Translations under genes and position numbers: made by a program
The notes under the pieces: model-generated
The model's database searches: none
What the model saw: the letters and a program-made list of their open reading frames with translations, nothing else
What the model was told of the DNA's origin: nothing
In this document: piece by piece, positions 15,591-57,127 of the stretch
Layout: every line of letters starts with the position of its first letter
How positions within the stretch are numbered: the first letter of the stretch is position 1
NCBI GenBank assembly: GCA_000091205.1
Contig: AP006498.2
DNA length: 64,000 nucleotides
DNA from: Cyanidioschyzon merolae
Lineage: Eukaryota
Direction: 5' to 3' (one strand)

Positions 15591-18500
15591 TTATCCTAGA
15601 CCACGATATTTTTCCTGTCGGATATAGTCGCGTTCCCATTGATGTAGATAAGGGAGTACGGGTGATGGTGTAAGCGCGTAAACGTGCCAACGTGCTCGTT
15701 CTTCTACCATAGACCACAGCTCGAGTAATATCGCGTGTAGATTCCGTAGAGCAGTATCGATCCAGGGGCGGTGATCGGTAGCCCGCTCCCTGACGCCTAC
15801 TGAAAACCGCGAAGACTGTTGGTGCTGCTGCTGCTGTTGCTGTTGTTGGCGCAAGTTGATCCACGCTCGCACCAGGAGCGGAACCAAAAACGGAGCCACG
15901 CGTCGGACGAGCCGCGGGTGCTGCTGCACCATCGCATACCAAAGCGTCGCAATACTCGCTTCTCCGGGGTACTGCTCGGTGACCCGCAACGCGAGCGCCA
16001 GAACCGGATGAAAAAGAGCTCCCGCTGGATCCGCTGAGCGATCGACCAAAGCGATCAGGAGCCGCACCAGGGTCTCCACAAGCCGGCAACGGCGTTGCGT
16101 TCCGGTCTGCGTCAACGCTCGAGCACTCGCTATCAGTAGCGCTTTCACCACGCGAAGCAATGCCTGGTGTTGACGACGCCAGTGCGTCCCGAGGCCGTGA
16201 AAGCGCGCACCACGAGCAAGGTGCTCAGGCCTGGGACGTGCAGCTGCTGCTGTGACTGCGGTTCCATATCGCTCTGGACGCTGAAGCGGGCGCCATAATC
16301 GCTCCACCAGACGTAACAGGTACCACAAAGCCGGTGTATCGTATTGAATCGATCCGTCTGGTTGGAGTTCCGGAAGCCTGTACTCCAAGAGTCTCTCGAG
16401 GACTGCCTCCAGCGTTGCGGCGTCCATGCTGGTAAGCCAAATACCCAGTCGCATCTCGATATAGCCGGCAGCGGAGCGTTGGGTGCTGCCGGCTGAGGCC
16501 GCACTCGCCTCCCCGGCGACATCTAGCACCGAGGCAGGTATTCCAGGTGCTGACGGTGCCTCGGCGCTCGACGCCAGTACCAACATACTCAGCAGCAGTG
16601 CCGTACGACCGGGTCCCAGGGAACGTTGAGTCGTTGCTGGTTGCGATTCTGGTGCGCTCAACGCCCTCCATGTGTCCTCGAAACAGTCCCAGATGAAGCG
16701 CAACGCGCGTCGGGGTAACCGTCTCGCCAGCTGCTCTAGCCAGTGCTGGATCCACAACAGACCAGCAAAGGGCTGCGAATCCAACCAGACCGGTGAACAT
16801 GTCGCCAACACAGTGACCAGTGCATTCGCCAGCGATTGTGATGGCATTTCAGTGGGTATCTCCCAGCGCTCAGTAAGCAAACGCCGCCACAGCGCCCAGC
16901 AGCGAGGACGCAACGCGCGGGGAATCTCATCCAGAGGCGTCAGTGGCTGCAACGACGACAGCAGCGGCAGCAGCAACTGGTGCTGCTGCTGCTGCTGCTG
17001 CTGCTGAGGCTCCAGCTCGTGGCCAGCTGCAAAGTTCGTCGTATTCAGCAGCGTGTCGCAACAATGCAGGTAAATCAAGCGCCATGCATCTGGTGGATGC
17101 GTCCAGAGACTGCGCAGGAAGGCGCTGCACAGTTCCTGGTAGAGACCCATGTGCTGATGCGTCCAGTACGGTACCTGTGCGTCTTCGCCAGCCAATTGCT
17201 GTTTCCAGAGAGTGCTCAGATGCTCGGCGAGCGCTGCACTACCTGTCCATCGCAAGGCAAAACGCGGACCGTATGCGAGACCCATACGACATAGCGCGAG
17301 CAACAAACGCGGTGTTCGCGTCCAGGTGTCCGGGGTCCAGGCGCAGCGCTCAAGCAATGCCAGTACCCGGGATGCAGGTAGCAGACGCAACAACGTATCT
17401 AGAAAAGGCTCCAGAAGAAACCGTTGCCGTAACCAGAGTGTTTGGGGCGCTGAGCCGTCGGTCTTGCTGGGCGACGCTTCCGCCGGCCAAACGCACTGCA
17501 GGCACTGAAACAGGGCCGCTTCCGCAGCAGTACGAAGCGCTTCCGTAGTCGTCGGCGACGTGGCCGCCGACGGTATCGTCACCGCCACCGTTGAGGCATT
17601 CGCTTCCATCCATAAATCCGATAAATGCACGATACTCCAGGTGGAAAGCGGATGCAGGTCCGCACTGCAGGGCGCCTGCGCGAACGCGCACAACAGGCGG
17701 CAGAGCAGTAGCTCGACCAAAGCGGCTACCTTGGGGGTATCGCGGGGCAACTGCGGTATTGCTGTCACCAGTCGAAGACAAGGAATGGATCGTAGCGTAT
17801 CGGCGTGCTGGCGGGCGAGGAACGCCAATACACAGCCAGCAGTCGTGGTGTAGTCGCTGTCATCATGCCTGATGCGGAGGTGCGGCGTATCGAGCCCGGT
17901 ATCCGGCGTTTCCAGCACCTGTTCCTCGCTTGGACGAATCCGGAGCTCCCAGATATCCACATCTTCACAGATCCATTCGTTGATTCGGGGTTCATCAAGT
18001 GCCATCTCCAGCACTGCATCGAGCAGAGCGCGTTCCTCGCTGATGCGCACCAGCTGGAGTGCAGCGTGTGCCCACAACATGGTGCGCTCCTGTCGTATCG
18101 GCAAGCGACAGTCGCGCTGTGGCAGCCAAAGCGCACCTAATGACGTCTCCCTGTGATGACTCCGCATTGCGGGTATCTGCAGCTGTCGCAGCCACAGCTC
18201 AAGGACGCTCCGTGTGGCGGTATCCGGCTGCCAGCTGCGCAGCTCCGTTAACAGCTGCATCGAGTCAGTGGAGAGCCCAGGCTGCATCGTTTGTTGCAGC
18301 TGCAACAACGCAAGGCTTACCCGCGCAAGCTCCGGCAGCAGTTGCGGAGCGCTTTCGCGACTCCAGCGCCAGCATGCACGGCAGGCATCGGTGATGAGCG
18401 GATCGCGGATGTCGCCAAGTGTGCTTTCGAGCGCTTCAGCTGCGGCACTGAACTGCGACGCGATCGACTCGATGCTTGTCACGAGCAACGGGAGCAGCGA

Positions 18501-20408
18501 CCACTTGGCTAAAGACGCTCGCTCTGTTCGATTTGTATCGCACCCAGCGGCTTCTGGTGACGAGGATGCAGCAGGCGCTCGAACCGATTGCTCAAGCGCG
18601 GGCTGAAGCATCTGCAATAGCTGCATAAACAGGGACCAGCGTTGCGCTACGGACCAATGCTTGGCGAGGTCCTGCTCCATCCGGAGCTGCAAGCGCGGGC
18701 TCCACCGCACTGCTTGACCTGTTTCAATGCAATGTTTGATGAGCAGCTGGAACAGACGACTGCCGTCTCGATGTCCACCGAGGTCTGTCACGAACGCGAC
18801 GCGAAAGGCGTCCACTGCCGGATCCGTTGCCGCCCTGTCAAAGAAGCAAAACGAAACGACCTGCGGATCTAGCAAGGGCTCAGTCGTGAGACGCGTCAGC
18901 AGCCGAGGCAGCAGTCGACGCTGTGCCGCCAACGGCACCATGCTCCGGAGCAGCGACGATACCGACGCATCATCGCTATCCAGTCGAGTGAAGAGGCGGA
19001 ACTGCCACGCGTCTGTGAGCACGCTGCTCCAGAGGCATCGCCATAGTTCATCAGGAAGCGACGGTAACGATGCCAAATGATGTAGGAATGTTGTCAGATA
19101 AGCGACGCCGTTGCGAGGTCGCTGGCTCTCACCAGCAACAGAATCCAGGTTTCGCGGCAGCGTGGACGCTATTCCCTGCGACGCAGCGGCTGCAGCGGAA
19201 CGAGAGCGCTTCCGTGCCGCTCCCGGGACCCGCTCTCGGGTGACCGGAGCGCTGTCGCTGACCTCCGGCGACGACGCCTGACTCAAGCACTCGGCACCCA
19301 GTCGGAAGCACTGAATCAGGCTGGCTACCGACATCAGCGTCTGGGTTGTGGTCGCGACCCGAGACCCTAGTCGCAGTGACTCATTCGCGCTACTGCCCGG
19401 ATCGAGGATAAGCGCCGGATGCTCGCCCAGCTGCTTGAGCGTATCGATTATCCAGGTTGCGTACGCAGCGCCAATGGTAGCATGTTTCCGACCGCCGCTC
19501 GCTTTCGACAGGTCATCGATGCTGCGATGGAGGAGCAATTTCAGGGGCACACCCCAGGCCGCCTCTCGTAACGATATGAGCGAGAGGCACCCCAAAAGAC
19601 CCGGTACGCTTTGGAACAAGGTCTCCAGCTGCTTCAGCGTCGCGTTCCGGAACTCGGCTCGTGCCTGGAGTCTTTCGAGGATCCGTGTGCGCACCTGTAT
19701 GAGCAGTTGGTCGAGTTGGCGGCAGCGCTCGAGCACTGGCTGCTGTTCCGCAAGCATGCAAACGCGGACCACTGCGCCGACCAGTCGTAGCAGGGCCTCG
19801 GTTGCCGGTTGGAACGCAGGTCGCTCCAGCAAAGCAACCAACACAGCGAGAACGCTTCTTAGTAGTGGCATGTGCACGAGTTCTGGGCGTCGCTTGTGCT
19901 CTGGTGCCGGTGGCGCTGATGCCAGCGCTTTCTGCTCTTGTTCAGCAGTCGCGCGGAATGACTGCTCTTCCATAGCCAGTTCATCGTCGAGCGTACGTAA
20001 CCAATACGAGGGATCTGTGCAGACGGCCGCGCTCCAGTCCACTACACAGCGACTGAGGGCAAAGACCACCACATCGACGAGCGCGCTCGAGAGCGGTAGC
20101 GGTTCGGTCGCTGCCAGACGCGTCAGCAACTGTTCAAGTTGCCTGATAAGCGCTTCCAGTTGCCGTGTAAGCTCCGCGTTTGCCGGGTTCTCTGGGTTCT
20201 CGCCAGCCGCCTCTAACTCCTGCACCGTGCCCAGTAACATGTGCGTCGTGATCTGGAGTGCCTCCCGTTCCGCTGCAGGCACAAACCAGGCGATCCCTTG
20301 ATTCGGTGTACGGTCTGCCAGTGCTGCAATGCATGCCAGCCGGTTCTCGAACGGCGTCGACTTTCGACGAGCCAGTGTGTGTACCTGGACAAAACAAGGC
20401 GGTGGCAT
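15591..20408 (-). CDS. Large uncharacterised protein (1605 aa), Leu/Ala-rich and probably alpha-helical repeat architecture, with poly-Q tracts
   Basis: An uninterrupted 4.8-kb ORF in a GC-rich genome is unlikely by chance. It has two poly-Q runs (QQQQQQQHQ) and abundant LxxLL-like helical segments. I recognise no enzymatic motif. Confidence 0.6.
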   Translation of the reverse strand: MPPPCFVQVHTLARRKSTPFENRLACIAALADRTPNQGIAWFVPAAEREALQITTHMLLGTVQELEAAGENPENPANAELTRQLEALIRQLEQLLTRLAATEPLPLSSALVDVVVFALSRCVVDWSAAVCTDPSYWLRTLDDELAMEEQSFRATAEQEQKALASAPPAPEHKRRPELVHMPLLRSVLAVLVALLERPAFQPATEALLRLVGAVVRVCMLAEQQPVLERCRQLDQLLIQVRTRILERLQARAEFRNATLKQLETLFQSVPGLLGCLSLISLREAAWGVPLKLLLHRSIDDLSKASGGRKHATIGAAYATWIIDTLKQLGEHPALILDPGSSANESLRLGSRVATTTQTLMSVASLIQCFRLGAECLSQASSPEVSDSAPVTRERVPGAARKRSRSAAAAASQGIASTLPRNLDSVAGESQRPRNGVAYLTTFLHHLASLPSLPDELWRCLWSSVLTDAWQFRLFTRLDSDDASVSSLLRSMVPLAAQRRLLPRLLTRLTTEPLLDPQVVSFCFFDRAATDPAVDAFRVAFVTDLGGHRDGSRLFQLLIKHCIETGQAVRWSPRLQLRMEQDLAKHWSVAQRWSLFMQLLQMLQPALEQSVRAPAASSSPEAAGCDTNRTERASLAKWSLLPLLVTSIESIASQFSAAAEALESTLGDIRDPLITDACRACWRWSRESAPQLLPELARVSLALLQLQQTMQPGLSTDSMQLLTELRSWQPDTATRSVLELWLRQLQIPAMRSHHRETSLGALWLPQRDCRLPIRQERTMLWAHAALQLVRISEERALLDAVLEMALDEPRINEWICEDVDIWELRIRPSEEQVLETPDTGLDTPHLRIRHDDSDYTTTAGCVLAFLARQHADTLRSIPCLRLVTAIPQLPRDTPKVAALVELLLCRLLCAFAQAPCSADLHPLSTWSIVHLSDLWMEANASTVAVTIPSAATSPTTTEALRTAAEAALFQCLQCVWPAEASPSKTDGSAPQTLWLRQRFLLEPFLDTLLRLLPASRVLALLERCAWTPDTWTRTPRLLLALCRMGLAYGPRFALRWTGSAALAEHLSTLWKQQLAGEDAQVPYWTHQHMGLYQELCSAFLRSLWTHPPDAWRLIYLHCCDTLLNTTNFAAGHELEPQQQQQQQQHQLLLPLLSSLQPLTPLDEIPRALRPRCWALWRRLLTERWEIPTEMPSQSLANALVTVLATCSPVWLDSQPFAGLLWIQHWLEQLARRLPRRALRFIWDCFEDTWRALSAPESQPATTQRSLGPGRTALLLSMLVLASSAEAPSAPGIPASVLDVAGEASAASAGSTQRSAAGYIEMRLGIWLTSMDAATLEAVLERLLEYRLPELQPDGSIQYDTPALWYLLRLVERLWRPLQRPERYGTAVTAAAARPRPEHLARGARFHGLGTHWRRQHQALLRVVKALLIASARALTQTGTQRRCRLVETLVRLLIALVDRSADPAGALFHPVLALALRVTEQYPGEASIATLWYAMVQQHPRLVRRVAPFLVPLLVRAWINLRQQQQQQQQHQQSSRFSVGVRERATDHRPWIDTALRNLHAILLELWSMVEERARWHVYALTPSPVLPYLHQWERDYIRQEKYRGLG

Positions 20409-20649: not shown

Positions 20650-21076
20650 TTGGGTGACAGGCGCATGGAAGCCTGCAGTGCTCGTTAGGTTTCTGGATTT
20701 CGATTCTTTCCGAACTTTAGAAATGTACAGTATCAAAAAGCAGGAATGCGAGCTTACGGATCCGCGAGTCATTCAAGAATTTGCGCTCGTCTGCTCCAAG
20801 TGACTCCTGCGACACCCTGCCGCCCGAATGTGTGACGTCACTGGGAATCCAGATGACTCGCGACACCTACCAGCGAGGACTGATTCCTAAAATTAAAGAC
20901 ATGTTGAGCCACGATGGATACGTACGGGTTCCTGCTGCTCGTTCTTACGAAGAAAATGCCAATGGCAAGCGAGCCTCACGCGACAAATCCGTCTGGTGCA
21001 GGCCGTGGGTCAGCGATCGCCGCCAACGTCGGATTCGGGTCTTGAACGCTGCCAGCAACATCCACCAACTGCTGAC
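20650..21076. repeat. Copy 1 of a 427-bp dispersed direct repeat (98.8% identical to copy 2 at 25278..25706)
   Basis: Direct read: 'ttgggtgacaggcgcatggaag...caacatccaccaactgctgaca'. Five mismatches to copy 2 over 427 bp. It lies ~240 bp upstream of the start codon of the 1605-aa minus-strand gene. Confidence 0.95.
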
Positions 21077-22184
21077 AGTAGCGCTTTAGGGGAAAGACAA
21101 CTGGAGCAGGCACACATCAACATCCCGCAAAAACAGGTATTGATGATATTGCAATGCGTCCCGAACGTTTCATGTGTACACCGCCGAGCCAGCAAAAAGC
21201 GTACCTGTTCCATGCCGCGCGGACACGGGCGGAGGAAACGACATCGATCTGGGCAGCGTGCATGCAGGGGGCAACATCAGCGACATTACTATAACTTATG
21301 GGATGTTAAGGACAGCGATACAGCACGCATCATGCACGTTCATCCGTGTCACGCGTGCATCCGCCGCTTCATGTCCATGCATGTCGTTTATCGACATGCG
21401 TCCACACTGGTCTATTCGATTCGGAAAACATTGCTGCAACATATCCGTAAGGGAGAAGAGACAGGCAAGTCGTTTCGTTGACGCCATAATCGCCGCAGTC
21501 TTCGTACGCTCTCGCCTTGTGATTCGTGAGGGCGCCCGGCGACGCACCGGCGGGCGTCATTACGAGTACCAAAGGAAACAGGTCACGACTCGGGCCTCGT
21601 TCGATGACGCGCAATACCCGTCGGTGGAGCGATAAATCTGGAACATACGAGCTGCGTCGTGTGAAAATCGACAACTGGTAATCGTCATTGGTTGCATGGA
21701 GCACTGGAGCGAGCGTCTCCATGGAACCGATCTAACCTCGAGCAGTCGTGTTCTGCGGCTTGCGTACGCAATCGACTGGGCAGTGCGAGCGGCATTAGAA
21801 ACGCGAATCAGCTGGAGCGTAGTCTTGCATGAGCATTCGCTCCGGAGGTGCGCATTCCTGAATCGGAATCGTGGAGCCTGGCGTCGAACACATATGCACC
21901 ATTTGCATGCGTCTTTGACCTTGCGGGAAACAGGTCACCGTACGCTGACAACGCGAAAATATGGTGCTCGTCCTCCAAAAAATTCCCTCGTCTTGGTCGA
22001 GTACCAAAACGCAGTACAGCCTCCTTCCGTCGAGCCCGCTTCCGGGTCAAACTGGTCTGAGCCCATGTATGCGCGGTCGGCGGTGGCGAGTCTCTCGAAC
22101 GGCGCAAGTACGGGTACAGCGCCGGGCGTCGCTGGCTACACAGTGCGCAGCATCTGAGCGTTCATCTCCGATATAACGCCATCA

Positions 22185-25100
22185 TCAAGCGTCAGTGTTC
22201 TCTAGGGCGCTGACTTTGGCACGCGCCATATCGATGACAGGGTGCGGGAATCCAGCCATTTCAGCAATATGGATACCAAAGGATCTTTCGCTCGGTCCCG
22301 GGCGTAGTTCATAGAGAAAGACAAGGCTGGCAGCGGGAGTGCCTCTGCCGCGGTCATTGATTTCGCTGTCGTCGTTGTCGCGATGCACCTGAGCGACGGC
22401 GACATGGGCGTTCAGCATCCGATGGCTCCAGGCTCCTTGGGCAAGCTTGGTAAGCTCATGAAAGTGGGTCGCGAAGAGCGTCCATGAAGCGCGCGACGCC
22501 AGCGCTTCACACAAGGCGGCAGCGAGGCCGAAGCCCTCAGCTGTGCTCGTTCCGCGTCCAAGCTCGTCGACCAGAACCAGACTGGACGATGTGGCGTGCC
22601 GAAGAATGGTCGACATGTCGAGCATCTCGGCCATGAAGGTACTGATGCCGCGGGTTTGCATATCGCCAGCACCGACACGCACCAAGATCCGGTCAACTAC
22701 GGGTAACGAGGCAGCGTCGGCGGCCACGAAACAACCGCAGTGAGCCATGAGCACGGCGAGTCCGACCGAGCGCAGCGTTACCGATTTGCCGCCCATATTG
22801 GGGCCGGTAATCAGGAGCAGACGCCTCGGATGGGTGAGCACCACATCATTGGCGACAAAAGTGTGCTCGCCTTGGAGCGCGAGTTCCACCAGGGGATGGC
22901 GGAGGCCTCGCAAAATGACGCCGCTGCTTTCGTGCGCTTCGAATTCGTCCGATTCAACTAGTCGCGGGCGACAGAACTGACGCTCCGCTGATATCATCGC
23001 AAATGCGACGAGCATGTCCAGAAGCGCAAGGACGTGGCCGAGAACCTCGAGCATGGACGCATATTTGGCAAAGTGTCCAAACACTTGCGCCAATGTGGAG
23101 CGCTGCACCGCCACATAGCGTTGCTCCGCGGCGGTGTACGCGCTACTCCAGCGCCGAAGAGCGCTCGTTGTGAACCGAACACCGTCCTTGCGCGTTTCAA
23201 GGACGGTAATGGATTCTTTGCCGCGAATGCAAACTTCATCCTTGCGCGTCACCCGAAAGCAGAATCCGAGTCCGTCTTTGCGCTCTAGTTTGAGCCAGTC
23301 ACCGCCAGATCCACGCACGCCGTCATCTTGCTGGAGCGCTGCTATCGTCTGCTGATACGTCCGATTCATTTCTTCAAGACAAGTGTCCATTTCCCCACGG
23401 ATCTGGGTCATCTCAGTGCTCATGCTCGGTCGCAGCAAGTACTCGTGGTTTGTAATGCGCTCCAAATCGATGAAACGCTCCACATCTTCGATAAATTCCT
23501 GAGCTGCTGGTGCAACTGCCGCCAATCGATCAGCAATATCGCTCCGAAGCACTTGACAACACCGGGGACGGGTCTCTGTGTGCGCCAGCAACAGATCTTC
23601 CAGTTCCGAGCGCAAGGCCGGCAGTCTCACCAGGCTCTGATAGAGGCGCACCAGTTGTCGCAGCGATGTTTTGTCTCGCGCAAGTCGCCGCGCTATGGTG
23701 ATGAGATCCGCGAATCCTTTCAGATGATAATCAGCGAGTCGCTGTCGCGCGATAACATCATGGACCAGGAGCTCCACCAGATCGAGCCGTCGTTCGATGG
23801 CTTCGCGGTTACCCAGCGGTTCAATCAGGGCAGTTCGCAGCAGTCGCGAGCCCATCGGTGTTCGACACCGGTCAAGCAGGCACCAGAGGGAGCCCGGTGG
23901 AGGACTCGACGGCGATGCCGGACCGGTTTCATCGCCCCAAAGCACATGGAGTGCCTTCAAGGCAGCAGCGTCGAGCTGGAGATTCTGTCTCCAAGCGAGC
24001 TGCTCAATGCGGTAGCGACCCCGTTCACCAACGCGCTGACCCAAATCAAGAAACCTGACGCACATGTGCGCGCAATCTGTTGCTAGTTTCATCGAGAACA
24101 TCTCATCAAGCGTTAGTGCCTCGGGTCGCCAAGCGTCATCGTCACGTTGGCATGAGTCGGGAGTTTCGGATTCAGCAACAAGCCACCGAAGGTCGTGCTC
24201 GGCGCCTAGGCCTCCACGGCGCACTGGGCGGAGCATGGCGCGAGCGATGCCGCCAATCCGTTCGAGGGCAGCGTCCAACTGGTGAAGTTCATATTCGGCA
24301 AGATCGCCGTCTTGGAGGACAAGCTCTCGTGCTCCGCTCCGCACCAGAGCCCGCTCTATCCAGTCAGTTAGCAGAAAGGCTTCACCAGAGGCGTCCTCCT
24401 GGCACTCGATCACCCGAAAAAGCCCCGCATGCGGAATGCAGTGGCAAGCGGCGACCATACGGCAGTGGCGGTGCCCAGTGTTGCTCTGTTCACCTGTGGC
24501 TCTCGTACGTACAGCGAGCACGCCGGCCGTTTCACCAACAAGCGCGATGCCTTCGGCATCTACGACACTGTCGCCATCAGCGAGTCCGGAGCTGTCCTGG
24601 GCTCGCGTGTTTCCCGGTAGATAGCTTGTGAGCGGACCTACTCTAGCCGGACTGCCAGCCGCTGCGAGAAACCACTTATTCGCAATTTGTAGCGGAAATC
24701 CGAAACCGCGTGCTTCACTTGTACTCGCGCTTCCCAACCGGCTCCCTGCGGCGTAAACTGCGACGGCCTTGCCAGCCTCCAGTCCGGCCAGAACCCAGGT
24801 TGCTAGTGTCGCATTCGTGCTAGCTCGCACCCGAGCCAGGTACCATTCCAGCACCCGCTGCTGCGCTTGACACGTCACCGAAACTCGAACGCTCTCAGTT
24901 TGCAGCTGCGTAGAAAGCAGCCCGGCATCGCCGCTCAGCAACCAGAAACCAGCGGATGTCGACGCGAACTGGAGCACAAGCAGCACCGTGGAAGGATCGT
25001 ACGCAACCGCGGCATCCGCCTCCAGTTGTGACTCGAACCACTCTCGTCCAAATTTATCCACCCCAGAAACACCTCCAAAGACCTGAACGAGGGCATCAGA

Positions 25101-25250
25101 GCCGTGCGCTCCCTGTACGTGAACCATCGCTGCTAGAAGCAGGTGCACTTGTGCGAAGCTCGCGGACTCGGTTGGCGCCAAATGAAAATCCTGCGTGCTG
25201 CTGCGCAGCGTCTTAGATATATTGGTACAAACTCGACCACAGCCCCGCAT
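22185..25250 (-). CDS. MSH2: DNA mismatch repair protein MutS homologue, MSH2-type, 1021 aa
   Basis: The ABC ATPase region '[29 protein letters not shown]...[61 protein letters not shown]...[13 protein letters not shown]' is near-colinear with MSH2 ([15 protein letters not shown]...[36 protein letters not shown]...[18 protein letters not shown]...[12 protein letters not shown]). Upstream MutS domains II-IV are also recognisable ('[18 protein letters not shown]', '[12 protein letters not shown]'). Confidence 0.85.
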   Translation of the reverse strand: [1021 protein letters not shown]

Positions 25251-25277
25251 GCGGCAACAGCGCTGCAGCGAATCCCC

Positions 25278-25706
25278 TTTTGGGTGACAGGCGCATGGAA
25301 GACTGCAGTGCTCGTTAGGTTTCTGGATTTCTATTCTTTCCGAACTTTAGAAATGTACAGTATCGAAAAGCAGGAATGCGAGCTTACGGATCCGCGAGTC
25401 ATTCAAGAATTTGCGCTCGTCTGCTCCAAGTGACTCCTGCGACACCCTGCCGCCCGAATGTGTGACGTCACTGGGAATCCAGATGACTCGCGACACCTAC
25501 CAGCGAGGACTGATTCCTAAAATTAAAGACATGTTGAGCCACGATGGATACGTACGGGTTCCTGCTGCTCGTTCTTACGAAGAAAATGCCAATGGCAAGC
25601 GAGCCTCACGCGACAAATCCGTCTGGTGGAGGCCGTGGGTCAGCGATCGCCGCCAACGTCGAATTCGGGTCTTGAACGCTGCCAGCAACATCCACCAACT
25701 GCTGAC
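25278..25706. repeat. Copy 2 of the 427-bp dispersed direct repeat
   Basis: Same sequence as 20650..21076. It begins 28 bp upstream of the MSH2 ATG at 25250 (minus strand). Confidence 0.95.
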
Positions 25707-26407
25707 AACGGAAATGGAAGGACAGTCGAGACCAGCGTATTTAAAGCCAGAGATGGGAGACAGGCTAAGGAAATCGTCGCAGAAAAATTCCACAGTGACA
25801 GGGGCCGTTTACAAAAGGAAGAGTCCCAAAATATACCGCTTGCACCCGATCCAGCGGCTTGACTCCGTTCGGTTGGAAGCTGGCACCGGCGTAAGATCGT
25901 CGGTAACGCGTAGAGTCCCAGACATACGGGTACGACCTACGCAATGGATCCGCGTACGGAACGAACGCTTTCTTAGAGTGCAGAATCCTTGACATCAGGC
26001 TCGGATTTCCGGTCGTGCGCTGGTCTTCCACGTCCGAGGAGGTTTCTATCACGCAGCACCGCACCTGCGAATTCCCGTAGCCACGACCCATTCTTCCGTA
26101 TGGGGATAATGGTTCGTTCATACGATCCGACAGATACCAAGCGTGCATTGTGCATCTTCTGTAACGCCTAAAATGCTGCTGCGTACACTGCACGGAAAAA
26201 GGACGCGTTCGTCACACTCCTGAACGCTCGTCGAGTCGAGACAGCGTTGCTGAGCCCGCACCCGCAGACGCGATCTTGGTGATCTATTGCCATTGGCCCA
26301 CAGTGCTGCATTGGCATTGCGAGAAACGCTGAGAACTACCCCTGCTGGAAGGACGCGCACGTTTCGAGTTAGTATGCCAGATTAGGAGTCCCGGGGGTAG
26401 AGGCTCG

Positions 26408-27469: not shown

Positions 27470-29099
27470 GGATCGGACAGGGCCGTCTTCGTGCGAATTG
27501 GATGTTTTTGCATTATGCTATATGGAGCAGTTGTTTCCAGCAGCGGTAGATGGATACTGTCCTTAAGTGAGGACTGTGTGAAGGGTTTTGCACCCATCAT
27601 AGTTTCCTAACGCTAGATGCAGTTGAGCGTAATCGCACGGAAACGGTTGCGAACGCAGCAGAACGAGTCCTATGTAGTTTACAATAAAACGCCTGGGATA
27701 TCGCATCTCGACAACGACGGCAGGTGCGCCATACAACAGACATTGCTCGCTATCGTCATTGGACCTCGATACACGCAGTCATATCGAATAAAAGAACATC
27801 ATTTTTGTTCAGCAAATTCCCAGGAAAATCGTTCTTGGTGGGTAGATACGGTGCGCAGACCTGGCTCGGTTGCTGATCTGCAGCGTACCAGAGCCTTGTG
27901 TCAGGCGAGAATCCGATGCCGTCATTTCTGGCTACCGTTTTTGTCTCATCGCAAGCCGTCAGCGTTTTACTCCAATGGCCACAATGAGTTCTCAGCCATT
28001 CCACTGGTAGTTCGCTCGACACAAAGCCGCTGGATGCTCTGGCAAAGCAATCGATGCTCCCGGATTTTGATCGAGGCTTTCAGGTCTTTGTGCATCAAGT
28101 GTTTTTGCGCATGATTGCTGGTGGAATCGTACCGCGGCAAGCCCTGTATCTGCAAATGCCTCGCTGAGGCATGTTCGGTCAGCTTTGCGCACACTCTCCA
28201 GCGCTTCCGGCTCTATTGCATGCGCTTCTTGTCTGCGCATTTCAGGGTGCAGGCGTGCTCGAGATGTACATATTGTTTTCCAAACGCATCGATGGGCATC
28301 GTCCAAAATCGATGCCAGTACTCGGTTTACGCCGTCGTCGAAGGAGCCGGAGCGAAGCCTATGCGCGCTACAGCATGTCCGGTGCGATACGCGATCACCA
28401 GATAACGCGACTTGTCGACGGTTCCCGTTTCCAGCTCAGAGAACAAGTTGTTGAATGCCCGCTTCTCGTCTTTGACCTATTGAAAGTATTGGCGAAAGCG
28501 GCGCGGCTTCATATATTCCTGCCAAATATCGTCTGCAGGAGCCGTTCGGACCCCGATGCACGCTCTTTATGAAGCGTCCAAATCGTTTCGCCACTCAATA
28601 CGGAGCTCTGAGCGTCGCGATGGCTCCCAACATGGTCATTCCGTGCCATGGTATCGCAGCTGGCGTCCGGCAAGCACGACTCGTGGAAATCACGAGTCGT
28701 TTAGAAGCTGAGCAGCATGATCTGATTTCCGTCTAGGTCTCCAGTGACGTCCTCTTGATGGAGAGGTACGGCAACGGCCGTGATTTCCTTGAACCCCCAG
28801 TCGACGCTCGGTAGAAACGCATTCCCGCCATTTCTATGGAAGGCTTGAAAAAGATTCTCGTTTCTCGACGTACGCCTAGGTTTCATCCTGTGCATGCAGA
28901 TTGACAGACAATCTGTTTCTGTCGTGCCTGCTTACATCTTCCCACTTGCTCCCTGCAAACGTGAAACCTTGAACGAGCTCCGCCAACATTCTTCGTAAAT
29001 TTCACCGAATTTTTCGTTGTTGATCGAAGCGATCAGTTACTTTACCTCCTCGTCTACCTGGCGACGCTGCATGGTTGTGACCTTTGTTGTGTATATCCC

Positions 29100-29990
29100 G
29101 TTTATCTTTTGGATTTAGACACACTTGATCGACGATAACACTGAAACGTGTCACTTCTATCTATGTACACACTAATCCTCTGGTAACATGTCGTCAGCGT
29201 TTCCGTCGCGGGCACGTCAACCGACCGGGGCTCGCCTTTGCAGCCCTCACGAGCAGGGGCACAACAGCGACAGAGCAGTTCGGAATTGCTGAAGTTAAAG
29301 AGCGACTTGTGGAAGAACTGCGGTCTCACGTATGCGAGCGACTCGTCTATTCATCCGTGAGCATGTAAATTGGCTTTTGACTACACACAAGATGCTTTCG
29401 ACTGGATTCAACCTCGGAGAATAGGCTGGCACGAAGAGCAGCTCAACGCCAATCCCAGCAACGTGCTGTTTGACAGATTTTTCGTGAACGAAAGCGAGTT
29501 TATCCAAGACATCGATAGAAGAATGTGAAACGTCGGAGTCAAGAAGAGTCATTGGACACCGGATGCGCTGTTGAACGATCCGGTGTGCTTAGCGATTTGC
29601 AGGCGACCAAAATGCAGCATCGCTGCTTCGACGGACGTTCTCGTCATTTTCGCGTGTCTACGGTTTACGGACAGCGTTTTGTCCGACTTTGAGTACCCAC
29701 ACGCAGACCGACCATTTCCTCCGAATGACTTGTCATTCAGTGAGATTTGCACCAGTTTCTCCTGTAAAAACCTTTCGCGATTCACTGCGGAATCGATACT
29801 TGTATTGTATTCAATCACACATGACAGTCTCCCAGGGAAGCGTACCTGTCTCTTTGTCTATCTGTGCTTCTTCATCATCGCTCATAGCCAAGGTATGGAA
29901 GCTTTTCATTACTTGGCTTCGTTGGTGGAGTTTCTCACCGGACACACGGGGTGGAATGGTCTCACACGGAGGCTGGCACGTAGCTAGCGT
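29100..29990 (-). mobile_element. Degenerate Tc1/mariner-like DDE transposase relic (copy A), frameshifted
   Basis: ORF 29295..29552 (-) has 'GIGVELLFVPAYSPRLNPVE', the hallmark LxxPPYSPDLNPIE catalytic-region motif. The upstream ORF 29549..29818 (-) has an HTH-like 'CGYSKSDK' segment. Stops and frameshifts break the reading frame. Confidence 0.5.
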
Positions 29991-36036: not shown

Positions 36037-38248
36037 TGTTCGCTCGCAAAAGCCTCCGTCGTTCTACCAGCCGCTCGCGGTGGACAGAGCGTACGTGCTT
36101 GTCTCTGTATCGTTTTAAGACAGGCACCTTTCGTTTTCACAGGGTAGTCTACCCCAGCGGGAACGCTTCCCTCTAAACAGCAGCCAAGTGCCCCCAGGAG
36201 CAGCCGTGTGCAGCGCTCAGCGCTTGCCAGCAACACTGCACTGTGCAGGGCGAGAGTTGGCGCCGCCCAGCGCGCCTGCGCGCGGGACACCACGACGTCC
36301 CCAGTGAAGCGTTCCGCATTCCCCGATAGCTGGCACTGATCGACATCGGACACTGAACTGCTTGCTCTATTCGTGATTGATGAGGTTCTCCTGAACATTG
36401 TTTCTGAATATACAGCTTCGACAATCGAACTGCAACAAGAGCGGCTTATGGATTTGTGCGTAGTCTTAGGACTCTCGGTGGTGTTCGCGGAGAGGCTCCT
36501 TCGAAGCGCTCGCCAGTGAAATTCGTATCGTGACTGTCATCAAGATGACGAGCGATACAATCGACTATAGTCTGTAAAGTATTCAGTTTTGTTATTCAAT
36601 TCATACGTAGAGACCTCTTTTGTCATGCATTCATGACGCGTAGCACAGTGAATGCAGGCATTATTGATGGACAAAAGAACCGGATACGGTTCTTCGGTGA
36701 CTGGATCACAAGCTCCTGCTGATACGATACTGAGCATGTCACGTTCAGTTATCGAAACCATTCGGAACGCAAATCCTCCTGTCTTTGTGGCGATTGAGGA
36801 GACGGGATTCGATACCAGCACGGTACCTGTGACCGCGTACGCTCCCAGAGGCACCCGTACCTTCGATGCTGGGTGCCTGGAGAGGGCGTTGGAGTCGGCA
36901 GCGGATCATCGCAGCGCTCGCTTTCCGTGGAGCATGCGTCACTGTGTTGGATGAAGACGGCGCAGGCAGATTGGTATCTCTCAGCTTGCCGTACAGCCTG
37001 GATGCTTTTTCCGGTACTTGTTTTATCATGAACAACACCGTCGTCCTCAAAGCCTCTATCGAATGGGACCGCGAGCATTTCAGCGTGGAGCGGGTGTCGC
37101 TCAGAACACGCCTGTGATCGTCAGGTACGGCACTGCGAACGGAGGCAGAGGAGCATATCGATGCGATCCTTCTGCACCCGTGAAGAGCGTGTGCCGAGCG
37201 ATACAAGCAAGCGTTCATGTGCCACAGGGCAGCGTTCTGAGCAGGATGAGAAGGCGGAGGTGGTGGCAGAGCAGGAGCATATGCTCTGGTCAAGGGGGCA
37301 CGCCTCAGCACATTCAAGTGACACCGCTGCGATGGGTGCACCCGCACTGGGTACAAAGCTGATGAAAATGACAAGCTATCCGTTGATCGCAACTTTTGCC
37401 TGTGCCTGGAATGCGTCGACAGCGGCCTGCAACGGTGTCACTGGGGCTTTCATCGCGCTGCCAACACGCTTCGACCGCTGACTGCAAAGACAGAAGCAAA
37501 GAAGAGACCGGCGTATTGAAAGCCAGAGATAATTGGAGAGCAAGAGGAAGCAGCGGCAGGCGAAGCCAGCAAAAGCCGATGTTCATGATGGTAAAAAAAG
37601 AGACCCAAACTCCAGCGGGTACGCCCGTCTTCGCCCGATGGACCCGTTCCATTGTAGTCTGACACGGGTGTACGCGACGCTGCCGCATGCGTTCAGGTAT
37701 ACCTCCGAGAGATCCTCGGTATACGCCTGCCCTTACATACGGCAAGTCGATCTCAACGTCAAGTGCCGTAACACGTGCGGCTCCTGCTCCAGACGCCGGC
37801 CGCTTGATCGCAACGCAATCCCGTGTGCTTGACGAGCTTCAATAAAAACGCTTTGGTGCCGACGTTATCGTTGCACACCAGGCGCATGACCCGATGCGAA
37901 AGCTGGGCAAACGTCATCGCTCGGGGCTCGATCCGCAGCGGAACCTCAGCATGCTAACTCGCAGTCAAAATGCAGACCTTGTTTCTGATCGACGATGCCT
38001 GGACCTTTCCGGTGTCCAGATCCAATGCAGCCGTGTCACGTGCGCTCACTCACTCACACACTCTCTCTCTCCCTAGAAAGCACAGATCGTATCTCTAGCC
38101 GCATGCACGTCTTGCGCGGTTCGAACGAGGCCTCTCTACGACAGGTTCATCGTTTGCGCTGTGGGTATGTTTCCGGTGCCAGTGATACCCACCATCCGCG
38201 GAGGCATGCGCTACGACCATCGCGATGGACTTTTGCGGCCTCCGCGGG

Positions 38249-49970: not shown

Positions 49971-51316
49971 ATACAGCTTTTTGAAAAACAAGCAAAACCA
50001 AAAAAGGCAAGCTGATGCAGGTTCTCAAGAATTCACTGCTTGGTGAAGTAACGAGCAATGCATCAACGCTGCCGCTCGCTTGGATTGCGTCCCTGCGCGT
50101 AGACTTGGACCGCACTGTAGGCGAAACAGCTTCCAATGGAAATCCAAAGAGGAGAGAGACTGGCGTACTGACAACCTGCAATAAGAGAGCGGAATACGAA
50201 GCAGTCGCGGGTAGAGCTCGTAAACGCTGGTGTTGATGATAGCTAGAAGAGAACGGAAAACTTCATAATGAACGCCCATGTTCGCGAGGCGGATCCTGTT
50301 CCATTTTATGCTCACCTGCACGTACGCGTGAAAAGTCTCCGATGAAAACGCGTTGCAGCGTAGCGCATCGCCAGACAGCAAAACAGGAGACGCCGTTCAG
50401 CTCAAGTCCTGGCAACGGCAACCGCTGCTGCTTCTCTACTGCATCGCACGCTCGTAGCGGAACCGCGGGTTCGTGGCTACTGCCGCACATCCGCCTCGTG
50501 TATGCCTTGCCTCTGACGGGAGCAGCACTGTTTTGCACATACATCACACCGTGAACGCTTTTGCGACTGCAAGTTGCAGACAAGGGAACACGAACGCACT
50601 GGCGGAGACTGGTGTTGCGCAGGACACGCCCTGCTTGGTGTTCTGGTCGAGAACGCTTCGATGATGAGGCACGTTTAACCGCCGTTCAAGTCGTCGCCAC
50701 TATCCCTGGCGCGAAATCGATCGATGGACACATCCCTCGAGGTGCTGCGAAAAGCGTCGCTTCAACCGGACGCAAAGCGAGACGCGCAAACCGCATCGAG
50801 ATTCCGTACCAGAGAAAGCATCGAAGCAGGAGCGACGAAGGCGATATCGCGGATACCGAAACACGATCACGATCGCTATTGAGGTTCGCAGCCGAAGACT
50901 CTGTATGGAATGTATCGTTGGTTGCGACGCAGTTGCGAGGTGCAATCATCAAGTCCAGCCATGTGGCAGGGCCTTAGCGCAAACGATTCTCTTGGATCCA
51001 GTTCTGGATCGTGCATACGCAAGTGAGGCATCGAGCAACGTCTGATTGTGCAGTTTGTTTTGCGGCGAGCACGGAGCATCTCGTGTGTGCGAGCAAATAC
51101 GAGGTCCGAGTGGCTTCTCTCGGCGGAATACGGAGCTCGTCCTCCAGGCGACGACGCCGAGAAAGACGTTTCACGAACGCATCTCCAGCGAGTCCATGCG
51201 TCTATGCAACGCGCTTTCCCGTGCTCCATATAGAGCTAACGTAATCGTTGCATCCACTGGATAAGAAACCGCTCGCTCAATGCATGTCGGCCTCATCTCG
51301 ATTAGGGGTCTCCATG

Positions 51317-54458: not shown

Positions 54459-55053
54459 GCGTGTCTTCGAACAGGGTAGGCGCCGATGGAGGCGGGGCTG
54501 TTTCGGTTGCCGCCCCGTCAACACGTTCTTTCTTTGCATTCATCGTTCTGGCTTGGCAGCGGGACAGTCACAGGGACGGCACTTCTGGACAGCGTCTGGG
54601 AAGCTTGCCAGTTTTCGCATAGATGCTTCAAAGGACGTCTTTGGTGCGCGTATCGACGTGAGGCACTGGAATACAGGGCGCTTTTCAATCGACAAAGGTA
54701 TCGCCCTGGTCCAGCGCGCAAGCCACTCGCTGGTCCGTCGACGCTTATTCGGACACGAGTTCTGCTCAGATGAACACGGAATGCTGGCCTGCTCCTGCTT
54801 ATCGATTTTTTCTGAACTTTTTCTAGATGCACAGGCTCGATAATGAAAGTGCGGTTATAAGGGTTTACGAATTCGAACCAAGTTTTAGGACGGTTTATTG
54901 TGCTTTCGAGGTGACTGCGTTGACGCTCTGCCACCGGAATGCGTTGCGTCAGCGTAATCGAGATGATTCGCGACGCCGACGAACAAGGGTCTCGTTCCAT
55001 ATCCGATTCCATCATCCAGTTCTATCGTATGAGCCTCCACGCTTCTCCTTTTT

Positions 55054-55527
55054 TTACGTGTAGTGTGCTCGAATCACCCATGGTTTAACTTTCCGATCTT
55101 TCTTTTTCAAGGCAACTCGCAGGTACAGGACTTCATGCCGCTGGATTGACGAGGCGAAAAACGCGACCGCAACCTTTGACGGCTTGTCTATAAATTCATG
55201 CCGAAATTTCTCTGAACTTGTCATGTCAAACGGTAGATTCCATTCGAAAGTCGAATCCGCGTCTTGCTGAGGGCATCGAAAAAACCCGTATTCCACAGCA
55301 GCATGATACCTGTCAGAACCTATGCCCCCAGAAGCTAGGCTTTCTTCTTCCATGAAACGACGAGGTCCTGGACTCGGACCTGCGCTCTCGTAGCGATCGC
55401 TTCCGGCGGAAAACGCATCAGTGTTCTGCACAAACGCATTGTCTACGGATCGAGACTGCTCGATCTGTTCTTCAGCATCTATTTTCCTTACGGCACTTGT
55501 TTCAGAATGAAAAACATCCAGTTCCAA
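55054..55527 (-). CDS. Hypothetical protein, 157 aa (no recognisable domain)
   Basis: Isolated ORF in otherwise gene-free spacing. Codon usage is similar to neighbouring genes. I recognise no motif. Confidence 0.25.
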   Translation of the reverse strand: MELDVFHSETSAVRKIDAEEQIEQSRSVDNAFVQNTDAFSAGSDRYESAGPSPGPRRFMEEESLASGGIGSDRYHAAVEYGFFRCPQQDADSTFEWNLPFDMTSSEKFRHEFIDKPSKVAVAFFASSIQRHEVLYLRVALKKKDRKVKPWVIRAHYT

Positions 55528-57127
55528 AAATCCTCTATTTCATGGAACAGCGCGCGTTTACTTGTGCAGTAGACAGAGTCTTCACCCAGTGAGTCGGCCA
55601 GAAAAAGCCCGTAATCGGTAGGTGCGGCAGCGGACGCGGAGACGGAGGAGAGTGTCGAGAAGGGCCCCTCTGTACACGTTGATGGCATTCACCGAGCGAC
55701 GGAGCAAGCCTTCACGCGCCGTGGGTGACGCTTCGAGGACAAGGTCTCCGGCGGACATCCCCGAACAACCAAACGGAGCCAAGTGCCACCGTAGCGACGG
55801 GCGTACCGTGGCTGCATGAATCGACAATGCAAATGGAAGCGAAGCTTCGTTCGCAGTGATACGCATCCGATGCATCGATTGAAGCGGAATCAGCGAATCT
55901 GGACTTGACGCTGCCACCAACATCCTTCGACTTCTAGTAACGGCGCTGGAGTTACAGGAGAGACTCTGGACCATTTAAAGCCGGGGGATGAAGAGAACAA
56001 AAGGAAGCAATCTTCTGGTATTTCACCTCAGTTGTGCTCCATTCCCCGGGTGCGTGTCATCAAATGCTTTCTCGCAGTTGATACAAGGCGCGTGTGAAAA
56101 GCGTCCATTTTCAAAAACAGCTCGAAGGGAAAAGTATGGGCATGGAAGCCGGGCATCCTCGAGGCCCGGTGTCGCAGCCTGCCATGAAAAAAAACGAGAA
56201 AAATCCTCTTCTCGTCGACCTTCGAGCGAAGAAGAAGAAGAGAGTAGTGATCGGCGACAACAGGTGTTTGCCCGACAGGACGACGACGAGACCGTACTGG
56301 CACAGAGGGCAAGCGTTCGAGGACTCCCTGCAATGCTGAGTTCAACCAGCGCCAATGCATGCAAGACGTTCGTGAACCGAGACTTGAACGGCGCCAGCCA
56401 TTTCAGAAGATATGCGGTGCTGAATTCGAGACCTGAAGAGCTGAGGCTATCCAATTTTGTGGGGAAGCCTCTCAGGCTCGAAGCATGCCAGGAGGAACTG
56501 AAACCAATAACAAGCGGCCGATCGAAAAAAAGGCCCCGAGGCGCCATTGACTGTGTATTCGAGTACGCGCTCGAGCCGACGCCCTCACTGGTACCGCGAC
56601 GCCGTTCTGCGGTCGTGCAACGATCGCACCAGTGCTATAGACGCTATTGCGGACGCTCTGGACAGGCATTCGGCGCACGACAGAACCTACGAATCGGAAA
56701 GTATATCCGAGCACAAGTACGGTTCATGAAACTTGGAAGAGCTTCGAAAGAAGGGCGCGCTGATACCAAGCGCCGACTCGCAAAACCCAGACTTCAATGT
56801 CCATGTTTGTCCAGAAAAAAAATCAGCTGGCGGGCCGGCGCGCACGCAGCTGGGCGCGGGACGCAACGGGGCCGCAGGGCGTCACGGCAGCGGGTCATTG
56901 TTTTCGTGCATCGCTTGGTGCAATTGTTGTTGGTGTTGTTGTCCTGTTCGTAAGGAGCGGGTTGCGGCGTTCACGGTGGATAGATTGAGGCCTTTTATAG
57001 TGTTCGATAGTGGGAGCGTCTTTATTTGGGGATTCACGTGCTGCAGACGAGCAACAGCGGTCGGAAAACGGCAGTTGTCTCTGTTGTGCTGCTTACCCGC
57101 TGGTAGAGACCGCGCCGGCCTCGGCAG

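Follow-up and report, generated by a model that had tools for sequence, protein, structure and literature searches.

Low-copy repeats, or small segmental duplications, that undergo gene conversion and non-allelic homologous recombination are the nearest described counterparts of a repeat pair that brackets the mismatch-repair gene MSH2 in the red alga Cyanidioschyzon merolae. Both show two co-oriented, near-identical copies a few kb apart with sharp boundaries, specificity to one lineage, concerted evolution, and a bracketed unique segment that recombination could delete. In contrast to typical low-copy repeats, the C. merolae unit is very short (428 bp) and has its origin in part of a decayed dispersed repeat, not in genic DNA, and deletion of its bracketed segment is putative, suggested by two ambiguous contigs. 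A second parallel exists in the same organism, in which direct repeats recombine out; this is the basis of URA marker recycling (Takemura et al. 2018/2019, summarised in PMC8504449), where a gene between direct non-coding repeats is lost by homologous recombination. The URA system is engineered and uses 5-FOA to select for loss, whereas the MSH2 repeats are natural and any loss of the gene between them, or selection for it, would be putative.

Mobile elements provide further comparisons. Solo LTRs and the ends of LTR retrotransposons resemble the unit in their direct orientation, their length of a few hundred bp and their TG...CA-like outline, but the unit lacks their target-site duplications and internal retroviral genes, and its interior is a syntenic host gene. 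5'-truncated non-LTR or processed retrocopies have one family-shared end and one truncated end, as does copy 1 of the pair, although copy 1 has no poly(A) tail or target-site duplication and lies 4.6 kb from its source. The 253-copy interspersed element of C. merolae (Nozaki et al. 2007, PMC1955436) is, like the family M to which we assign the unit below, diverged, dispersed, C. merolae-specific and intergenic; compared by description, its mean length is 3.2 kb and it contains a truncated WSV486-like ORF, whereas M members span 1.2–1.5 kb and have no conserved ORF. C. merolae has been reported to contain 26 non-LTR retrotransposons and no LTR retrotransposons, and a published de novo search of its genome detected no repeats with precise boundaries.

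Here, we analysed a window of 64 kb (the whole stretch of DNA under study, from chromosome 16 of C. merolae 10D; positions are counted from its first nucleotide). A sequence-only reading of this DNA had proposed that two nearly identical direct repeats bracket MSH2 and are either a duplicated promoter or 5'-UTR module, the LTR-like ends of an element that holds a captured gene, or a dispersed repeat that landed twice.

Results

A pair of 428-bp direct repeats brackets MSH2

Repeat finding, direct comparison and blastn agreed on a single direct-repeat pair (Table 1). The copies, spaced 4630 bp apart, aligned over 428 bp with 0 indels and 5 mismatches (98.83% identity) at unit positions 23, 53, 86, 350 and 383, leaving the central 263 bp without a difference; judged on length and identity, such a match cannot be due to chance. 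Both copies start with TTGGGTGACAGG and end with CTGCTGACA, and the flanks of copy 1 were unrelated to those of copy 2 (Smith-Waterman z ~0 against shuffles). The pair claimed by the sequence-only reading was therefore real in its five differences, sharp ends and diverging flanks, except that the unit measures 428 rather than 427 bp and copy 2 begins at 25280 rather than 25278. Inspection of the flanks of each copy and of the pair revealed no target-site duplication (copy 1, ...GTCCAC / GTAGCG...; copy 2, ...CCCCTT / ACGGAA...; outer pair, GTCCAC versus ACGGAA).

Table 1. Positions in the window of the repeat copies, neighbouring genes and members of family M.
Feature	Position	Strand	Basis or remark
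CMP113C, 1605-aa hypothetical protein	15591..20408	-	Conserved in cyanidiophytes
Copy 1, probably derived and truncated	20650..21077		Repeat finding, direct comparison, blastn; right flank without family similarity
Interior between copies, 4202 bp	21078..25279		MSH2 and 1.1 kb of 3' intergenic DNA
MSH2, BAM81757.1, 980 aa	22185..25127	-	Pfam MutS_III/IV/V, exact cluster look-up, N-terminal alignment
Copy 2, probable parent; left and central part of M3	25280..25707		Repeat finding, blastn, nhmmer, alignments
Family-M continuation past right end of unit	25708..25896		Adjoins copy 2 only; ~190 bp
TATA-like octamer TATTTAAA within conserved block GGCGTATTTAAAGCCAGAGAT	25738..25745		Alignment, three-way alignment
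Ap4A phosphorylase II-like gene, BAM81758.1	26408..27469	+	Pfam, cluster look-up; divergent from MSH2
M1, full-length diverged member, same orientation	36334..37831		nhmmer, profile matches
M4, partial, right part only	50104..50475		nhmmer, profile; abuts A-family element
M2, full-length diverged member	54765..56009		blastn, nhmmer, profile matches

The distance from the MSH2 stop downstream to copy 1 is 1107 bp, and copy 1 precedes the CMP113C ATG by 241 bp, in agreement with the earlier estimate of ~240 bp. Copy 2 is 700 bp upstream of the Ap4A phosphorylase ATG and 152 bp upstream of the conserved MSH2 ATG. The distance of 28 bp previously given for the latter had been counted from a mis-called start, as the MSH2 ORF extends to an unconserved upstream ATG at 25250 (the first ATG, giving a 1021-aa ORF), while the 980-aa annotation and an alignment with two orthologues place the start at 25127. 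CMP113C had no relative in Pfam or PDB, and the literature gave no match for the locus tags.

We rejected an RNA gene because Rfam returned nothing over the window at gathering thresholds (around copy 1, chance-level matches only), no tRNAs were found, and the folding energy of the unit was unremarkable on both strands (z -1.5 and +1.5). A coding unit was also rejected: the ORFs starting at ATG 20853 and ATG 25483 are of unequal length in the two copies and have no conserved counterpart in M1 or M2.

Membership of the unit in a dispersed repeat family

As judged from nhmmer and profile matches, the unit is a member of an older, dispersed intergenic family, M (roughly 60–70%-diverged), with other members at 36.3, 54.8 and 50.1 kb of the window and a full length of ~1.2–1.5 kb. 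The left ~220 bp and the right ~130 bp of the unit matched M1 and M2 (E 4e-12 to 5e-14). Continuous similarity joined M1 and M2 over 1.2 kb (nhmmer, 36334-37552 versus 54765-56009, E 4e-59), and M1 matched M4 (nhmmer, 37447-37831 versus 50104-50475). An 80-nt core in M2 (54906-54988) was 71–74% identical to the unit, scoring 47 against 21.8 ± 1.7 for shuffles; M2 sits downstream, not upstream, of a gene. The member that contains copy 2, designated M3, has an internal deletion of ~725 bp that is private to it among the family members and that is found in copy 1 too.

Family similarity ran past the right end of copy 2 (nhmmer, 25575-25896 versus 37351-37675, E 7e-13 to 5e-14; Smith-Waterman z = 15.6 for the right flank against shuffles), and the right flank of copy 1 showed no similarity to the copy 2 flank, M1, M2 or M4 (Smith-Waterman z <= 1.5). 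A TATA-like octamer in this continuation was present in M1, M2 and M3, degenerate in M4, and missing from the flank of copy 1. At its left boundary, the unit coincides within ~5 bp with the left terminus of the family as defined by M1, M2 and M3; M4 is without that terminus. No conserved reading frame was found in M1 and M2 (35–39% amino acid identity by tblastx versus ~62–65% DNA identity, with similarly weak matches on both strands and in several frames), and the ends of the unit and of M1, M2 and M3 showed no terminal inverted repeats.

The window is rich in diverged dispersed intergenic repeats, which were grouped as families A, M and C. Family A (2.5 kb, with DDE_3 transposase remnants) is a better candidate than M for a known transposon class. 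A reverse transcriptase (RT) fragment occurs at 43064-43849, and no similarity was found between M and this RT-bearing element.

Comparison among strains and with other cyanidiophytes

Contigs from four other samples (L008/L023, L010/L015, L011/L014 and L024) spanned both copies at the same spacing, so the pair cannot be put down to a faulty assembly of the window. A further contig (L012) carried copy 1. These independent metagenome assemblies come from ~99.3%-identical strains. A metagenome scan queried with the leftmost 35 nt of the unit recovered only the two known contexts, and the count of two near-identical copies covers the 64-kb window, two metagenome samples and the literature. A contig whose odd left end was considered as a possible sign of a third recent copy (L032) was chimeric and uninformative; its left end is the 3' end of a green-algal-type thioredoxin gene (84–88% to Mesotaenium and Closterium).

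Within genomes, the two copies differed at 5, 7 and 5 of 428 positions (10D, L023 and L024, from which the conversion signal mainly comes, as the identical copies of L014/L015 may be a collapsed graph edge and most strain sequences are metagenome consensus contigs that can mix the two copies). Between strains, orthologous copies differed at 6, 8 and 8 positions (copy 1) and at 6, 10 and 10 positions (copy 2), and at least six sites (columns 100, 137, 147, 161, 279 and 310) carried a strain-specific base common to both copies. As paralogues are closer to each other than orthologues are between strains, these alignments support an exchange of sequence between the copies by gene conversion (concerted evolution), which the sequence-only reading had raised as ongoing.

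Mean pairwise diversity was 1.64% and 2.10% in the two copies, 0.66–1.97% in other intergenic segments, among which only the 152-bp spacer (25128-25279) came near the unit, and 0.17–0.52% in coding sequence. Since both copies vary between strains more than most neighbouring non-coding DNA, the sequences give no sign of regulatory constraint on the unit, which is compatible with a short functional motif inside it, such as the TGACGTCA palindrome at 20833-20840.

The gene order Ap4A-phosphorylase / MSH2 / CMP113C-orthologue / oxoprolinase was common to two other cyanidiophyte lineages (L005, L006 and L007). Neither blastn nor a search with the family profile matched the unit there, although at ~60% protein identity the non-coding DNA of these contigs is probably past alignability and the missing match is not clean evidence of an empty site. 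The MSH2-to-CMP113C spacer was 1776 bp in the window versus ~910 bp in both outgroups, and the Ap4A-MSH2 spacer was inside the outgroup range. With two co-oriented copies at sites fixed in strains of the lineage and no match in L005–L007, the pair has the form of a low-copy duplication.

Contigs that lack MSH2

Two of the six metagenome contigs spanning the locus were without MSH2 (L009/L013, JGI 3300005573; L019, JGI 3300050379). In each, a single complete repeat unit connects the CMP113C flank with the Ap4A flank and the 4202-bp interior is missing, which reflects either a real deletion or a mis-assembly. They have different haplotype backgrounds and are not sister haplotypes, which fits recurrent events; a long branch, as a mutator signature, was sought in both and not found. 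That the repeats act as a natural recombination cassette, in which recombination recurrently excises the 4.6-kb MSH2 segment and so creates MSH2-null (mutator) cells or lineages in hot-spring C. merolae, seems to us a long shot.

Discussion

The pair probably represents a local duplication of low copy number, confined to the C. merolae lineage, and neither a mobile element carrying MSH2 nor a demonstrated regulatory module. Copy 2 would belong to M3, a member of the old and decayed dispersed family M that has lost an internal stretch. The left 428 bp of M3 would have been copied into the adjacent intergenic region, 4.6 kb away, after the Cyanidiococcus split but earlier than the divergence of the sampled C. 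merolae strains. The copied segment would reach from the left terminus of the family to an internal point ~30 bp short of the TATA-like motif. Copying most likely took place at the DNA level, through recombination-type repair with nearby sequence as the template. Gene conversion since then, as the strain comparison supports, has kept the copies ~1.2% apart; the position upstream of two gene starts would follow from the compactness of the genome; and occasional loss of the MSH2 segment through recombination between the repeats may be a side effect in this recombination-proficient alga.

The direction of copying is suggested by family homology that continues ~190 bp past the right end of copy 2 and not past copy 1, by the presence of the M3 deletion in copy 1, and by the enlarged MSH2-CMP113C spacer, all of which point to copy 2 as the parent and to copy 1 as its truncated local copy rather than to the two landings proposed earlier. 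Against repair copying, the near-coincidence of the left boundary with the family terminus would be fortuitous if copying were random, and this match hints at an element-specific mechanism. We rejected one further route and found a second less parsimonious. Old paralogues joined by a conversion tract do not fit the absence of signal in the right flank of copy 1 or its possession of the private deletion of M3; this applies to conversion as the origin only, conversion after duplication being supported. The second, in which the whole 4.6-kb segment was first duplicated in tandem and then partly deleted, needs two events, and no MSH2 remnants were seen beside copy 1.

Mobility of M itself, now or once, could have produced copy 1, for example if the non-LTR reverse transcriptases of the genome had turned a minus-strand M3 transcript into a 5'-truncated retrocopy. 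A unit with one end at the terminus of M1, M2 and M3 and the other truncated is what 5'-truncated retroposition gives when read on the minus strand, and the reported non-LTR retrotransposons and the RT fragment of the window speak for it as well. We nevertheless think such an element-driven copy quite unlikely: neither copy has a target-site duplication, a poly(A) or a simple-repeat tail (the minus-strand end of the unit, ...CCTGTCACCCAA, passes directly into unrelated flank), M is dissimilar to the RT-bearing element, M4 is without the supposed common end, and the sole near-identical copy is located 4.6 kb away from its source, a distance that speaks for a local event at the DNA level. It is very improbable that a generic high-copy MITE or SINE inserted twice independently. 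Diverged relatives of the unit do occur at three other sites in the window, and in this respect the earlier suggestion of a dispersed repeat was right as to family membership, though not as to a MITE or solo LTR; however, terminal inverted repeats and target-site duplications are missing, other members have neither the internal deletion nor the arbitrary, internal right boundary that are common to both copies, the metagenome scan recovered no additional context, and a published search detected no MITEs in this genome. The proposal that the copies are LTR-like ends of a non-autonomous element that captured MSH2 is barely credible, and we regard it as refuted. It drew on a TG near the start and a CA at the end of the unit and on direct orientation at a distance of ~4.6 kb. 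The unit starts TTGGG and ends GACA, and TG falls at positions 2-3 provided that its first shared T is assigned to the flank. Against this proposal, no target-site duplication is present at either copy or around the pair, the interior holds only MSH2 and non-coding DNA, the neighbours of MSH2 are conserved in two other cyanidiophytes without the repeats, the complete genome has been reported to be free of LTR retrotransposons, and the relatives M1 and M2 are single, not paired.

A local duplication might also have had regulatory consequences. If the unit were a shared promoter or 5'-leader (upstream regulatory sequence or the first 428 nt of the transcript), duplication would have put CMP113C under the control of MSH2, a reading we consider unlikely. 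Both copies have the same orientation upstream of minus-strand ATGs, and the 80-nt core, the best-conserved part of the unit across the family, includes both the perfect palindrome and TCGCGA. At its right end, the unit is 31–38 bp from the TATA-like octamer (minus strand, TTTAAATA), so that a minus-strand transcript from this putative motif would begin almost exactly at the unit boundary, and a heterologous TATA-containing core promoter has been shown to be functional in this species. However, the motif falls outside the duplicated part and is missing at copy 1, M2 is downstream of its neighbouring gene, both copies are among the most variable non-coding stretches, CMP113C has no known function that ties it to mismatch repair, and the literature describes the endogenous promoters of C. 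merolae as lacking TSS and TATA data. With spacers of ~1–1.8 kb, nearness to an ATG is expected by chance. The coupling to two gene 5' ends on which the sequence-only reading had relied is thus a weak argument: the MSH2 start was mis-called, a compact genome puts any insertion near a gene start, and both the position of the TATA-like motif and the variability of the unit weaken it further.

Overall, the MSH2 repeat pair is best read as an ordinary feature of routine genome history. For work on this locus, the first-ATG start of MSH2 is wrong, short-read assemblies break or are mis-joined here (at least 10 recovered contigs end inside the unit), and the unit should be kept out of the homology arms when MSH2 or CMP113C is targeted by homologous recombination. 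The highly streamlined genome of C. merolae still has recent local duplications derived from decayed dispersed repeats, and the efficient homologous recombination of this organism homogenises them. The pair would gain in importance should the deletion-type contigs prove real, as this haploid extremophile would then have, in a mismatch-repair gene enclosed by recombinogenic repeats, an inherent origin of mutator variants.

The repeat pair and the genes that it adjoins

Repeat search, base-by-base comparison and blastn agreed on two copies of a 428-bp unit in direct orientation, so the pair of near-identical direct repeats claimed in the sequence-only reading is real and required only small coordinate corrections (see table). 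The copies aligned over 428 bp with 5 substitutions and 0 indels (98.83% identity), and their middle 263 bp did not differ at all. Comparison of both flanks revealed no relationship on either side, and no further close copies were found by blastn in the 64-kb window.

Exact look-ups identified the window proteins as those of C. merolae 10D chromosome 16. Alignment with two orthologues showed that MSH2 is conserved from the annotated Met 25127 onward and not from the ORF's first ATG (25250); the 41 codons at 25127-25250 on the minus strand form an N-terminal extension that is not conserved. Copy 2 accordingly stops 152 bp upstream of the MSH2 start, and not 28 bp upstream as had been claimed from ATG 25250; the distance of copy 1 from the CMP113C start, claimed as ~240 bp, was measured as 241 bp. 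The MSH2 protein gave Pfam matches to MutS_III, IV and V and none to MutS_I or II.

Positions of the unit copies, related repeats, genes and other features in the window
Feature	Position	Strand	Description
Copy 1	20650-21077		428-bp unit
Copy 2	25280-25707		428-bp unit
TGACGTCA palindrome	20833-20840; 25463-25470		CRE / bZIP-type site
M1	36334-37831		continuous 1.2-kb alignment to M2, nhmmer E 4e-59
M2	54765-56009		continuous 1.2-kb alignment to M1, nhmmer E 4e-59
M3			internally deleted M member, contains copy 2
M4	50104-50475		partial M member
M homology rightward of copy 2	25708-25896		includes block GGCGTATTTAAAGCCAGAGAT
TATA-like octamer	25738-25745		inside block GGCGTATTTAAAGCCAGAGAT
CMP113C		minus	1605-aa ORF, hypothetical (exact look-up)
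MSH2	annotated start 25127	minus	MutS-family ORF, BAM81757.1, 980 aa (exact look-up)
Ap4A phosphorylase II-like		plus	gene next to MSH2 (exact look-up)
Family A	3817-6135 (reverse), 27770-30309, 47565-50114, 59708-60110; also 33997-34446		second diverged dispersed family
Tandem array	5268-5734		about five 93-bp units, 97-99% identical
Family C	34585-34934, 40304-40651 (reverse), 56292-56624; 44572-44943 and 56570-56903		third repeat family
ORF with RVT_1 match	43064-43849		weak reverse-transcriptase match, E 8e-6
CCATTCCCCCCATT match	59518-59531	plus	exact match

Family M and the direction of copying

Sensitive self-comparison of the window showed that the unit is part of an older, diverged family of dispersed intergenic repeats (family M). 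Over its left ~220 bp the unit, which starts within about 5 bp of the point where M1-M2 homology begins, aligned with the left ends of members M1 and M2, and over its right ~130 bp it aligned ~790 bp further along both; this places copy 2 within an internally deleted member, M3. Homology to the family extended ~190 bp rightward of copy 2 (Smith-Waterman z = 15.6 vs shuffles), through a conserved block common to M1, M2 and M3, whereas none was found rightward of copy 1 (z ≤ 1.5). These alignments indicate that copy 2 lies in its native family M context and that copy 1 is a secondary copy, having inherited the private internal deletion of M3 and ending at an internal point; copying thus ran from copy 2 to copy 1. 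The best-conserved 80-nt core of the family contains the perfect palindrome, followed by a conserved AGATGAYTCGCGAC block.

Other repeats in the window

Members of family A are about 2.5 kb long with 57–60% identity; they probably represent decayed copies of a class II element, since matching ORFs of metagenome contigs have precomputed Pfam DDE_3 transposase hits. One A-family element has the 93-bp tandem array at one of its ends. Compared with the outgroup spacer that separates the Ap4A phosphorylase gene from BOP1, element A2 is an insertion; one contig (L027 2191-3067, JGI 3300050389) matched the window to 27748, just short of the left edge of A2, and continued into sequence absent from the window, which may reflect presence/absence or replacement polymorphism of A2. 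Family C flanks a 4.8-kb gene-free stretch in which the RVT_1 match probably marks one of the reported non-LTR retrotransposons. The CCATTCCCCCCATT match, for which the chance expectation is none, corresponds to the template motif of telomerase RNA that Nozaki 2007 (PMC1955436) reported for CMP131T, a candidate transcript from chromosome 16.

Distribution and concerted evolution of the pair

The repeat structure was also present in metagenome contigs of strains ~99.3% identical to 10D. Both copies were spanned, with identical spacing, in four contigs from different samples (L008/L023, L010/L015, L011/L014 and L024) and L012 spanned copy 1, while numerous contigs ended inside the unit (L001–L004, L016, L017, L020, L026, L033 and L034), an expected effect of a two-copy repeat on short-read assembly. 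Another contig, L032 (Logan SRR29605740), is almost certainly chimeric, as its positions 1-386 are occupied by a thioredoxin gene 3' end, with green algae as the nearest relatives (84–88% identity), fused to C. merolae sequence at window position 25754.

Two remoter cyanidiophytes, one Cyanidiococcus yangmingshanensis-like (L005) and one of a third lineage (L006 and L007), encode MSH2 with ~60% protein identity to that of C. merolae and share its gene order (Ap4A phosphorylase, MSH2, CMP113C orthologue, oxoprolinase). Repeat, blastn and profile searches of these three contigs found MSH2 unflanked by direct repeats and nothing that matched the unit. C. merolae has an MSH2-CMP113C spacer of 1776 bp vs ~910 bp in both outgroups, and the Ap4A-MSH2 spacer, at 1280 bp, is inside the outgroup range of ~1.2–1.6 kb. 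Judged from the contigs compared, the pair appears confined to the C. merolae lineage. In L006 (19085-19319) and L007 (16214-16651), a 47-bp tandem array of 4 to at least 7 copies, unequal in number between the two contigs, lies in the interval from the CMP113C orthologue to oxoprolinase.

Gene conversion, suggested in the sequence-only reading, was borne out in three genomes with distinguishable copies (10D, finished and clonal, L023 and L024), with the caveat that the strain sequences are mostly metagenome consensus contigs. Copies within a genome differed at 5, 7 and 5 sites (10D, L023 and L024, respectively), compared to 6, 8 and 8 sites for copy 1 and 6, 10 and 10 sites for copy 2 between genomes, and at least 6 columns had a strain-specific base common to both copies. 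Paralogues closer than orthologues, together with shared strain-specific bases, are the signature of gene conversion, and the copies evolve in concert. Copies were identical in L014 and L015, which may represent a collapsed assembly edge.

Origin of the pair

Overall, the pair is an ordinary case of low-copy duplication, specific to this lineage, in which part of a decayed dispersed repeat was copied; gene conversion maintains the similarity of the two copies. Copy 1 would have arisen through DNA-level copying, with recombination-type repair taking the neighbouring sequence 4.6 kb away as template. Truncated retroposition, an element-driven route to copy 1, is kept as an alternative because the left boundary of the unit matches a family M terminus, but the copy has no tail and no target-site duplication and is very local. 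The proposal that the pair forms the ends of an LTR-like element with a captured gene is refuted by the lack of target-site duplication, by MSH2 being syntenic without repeats in the outgroups, and by the reported absence of LTR retrotransposons from the complete C. merolae genome. The suggestion of a dispersed repeat is correct in that the unit belongs to family M, but its MITE form is not supported: neither terminal inverted repeats nor target-site duplications were found, a metagenome scan with the 35-nt left end returned the two known contexts and no third, and de novo searches of the genome reported neither MITEs nor multi-copy repeats with precise boundaries. Searches of the unit for a known RNA family, tRNA, unusual folding or a conserved reading frame were also negative.

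A putative promoter or leader module serving both genes is not favoured. The copies are co-oriented upstream of two minus-strand genes, the palindrome lies in the best-conserved core, and the TATA-like motif is 31–38 bp from the right boundary of the unit, such that a minus-strand transcript from it would start at that boundary. However, copy 1 lacks this motif, M2 lies downstream of a gene, and closeness to a start codon is expected where spacers are 1–1.8 kb. The unit is also unconstrained between strains: mean pairwise differences were 1.64% and 2.10% for its copies, compared to 0.66–1.97% for the remaining intergenic segments (only the 152-bp spacer adjoining copy 2 came close) and 0.17–0.52% for coding sequence, giving no sign of purifying selection. 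According to a 2025 paper, TSS or TATA information exists for none of the endogenous C. merolae promoters.

Contigs without MSH2

In two spanning contigs of different haplotypes, L009/L013 (JGI 3300005573, Ga0078972_1004368) and L019 (JGI 3300050379, Ga0506617_00082), the CMP113C flank was joined to the Ap4A flank through one unit, with no MSH2. Recombination between the copies would yield exactly this product, as a pop-out deletion or a circle, but an assembler leaving the repeat by the wrong exit would yield an identical one. Sample 3300005573 also contained a separate 4.7-kb contig of the interior (L002) with MSH2 and repeat sequence at both ends, and no surplus private mutations were found in L009/L013 or L019. 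We consider genuine deletion of MSH2 in these contigs improbable. Markers set between direct repeats are known to be lost in C. merolae (PMC8504449), and the interest of the repeat pair lies mainly in the possible recombinational loss of MSH2.
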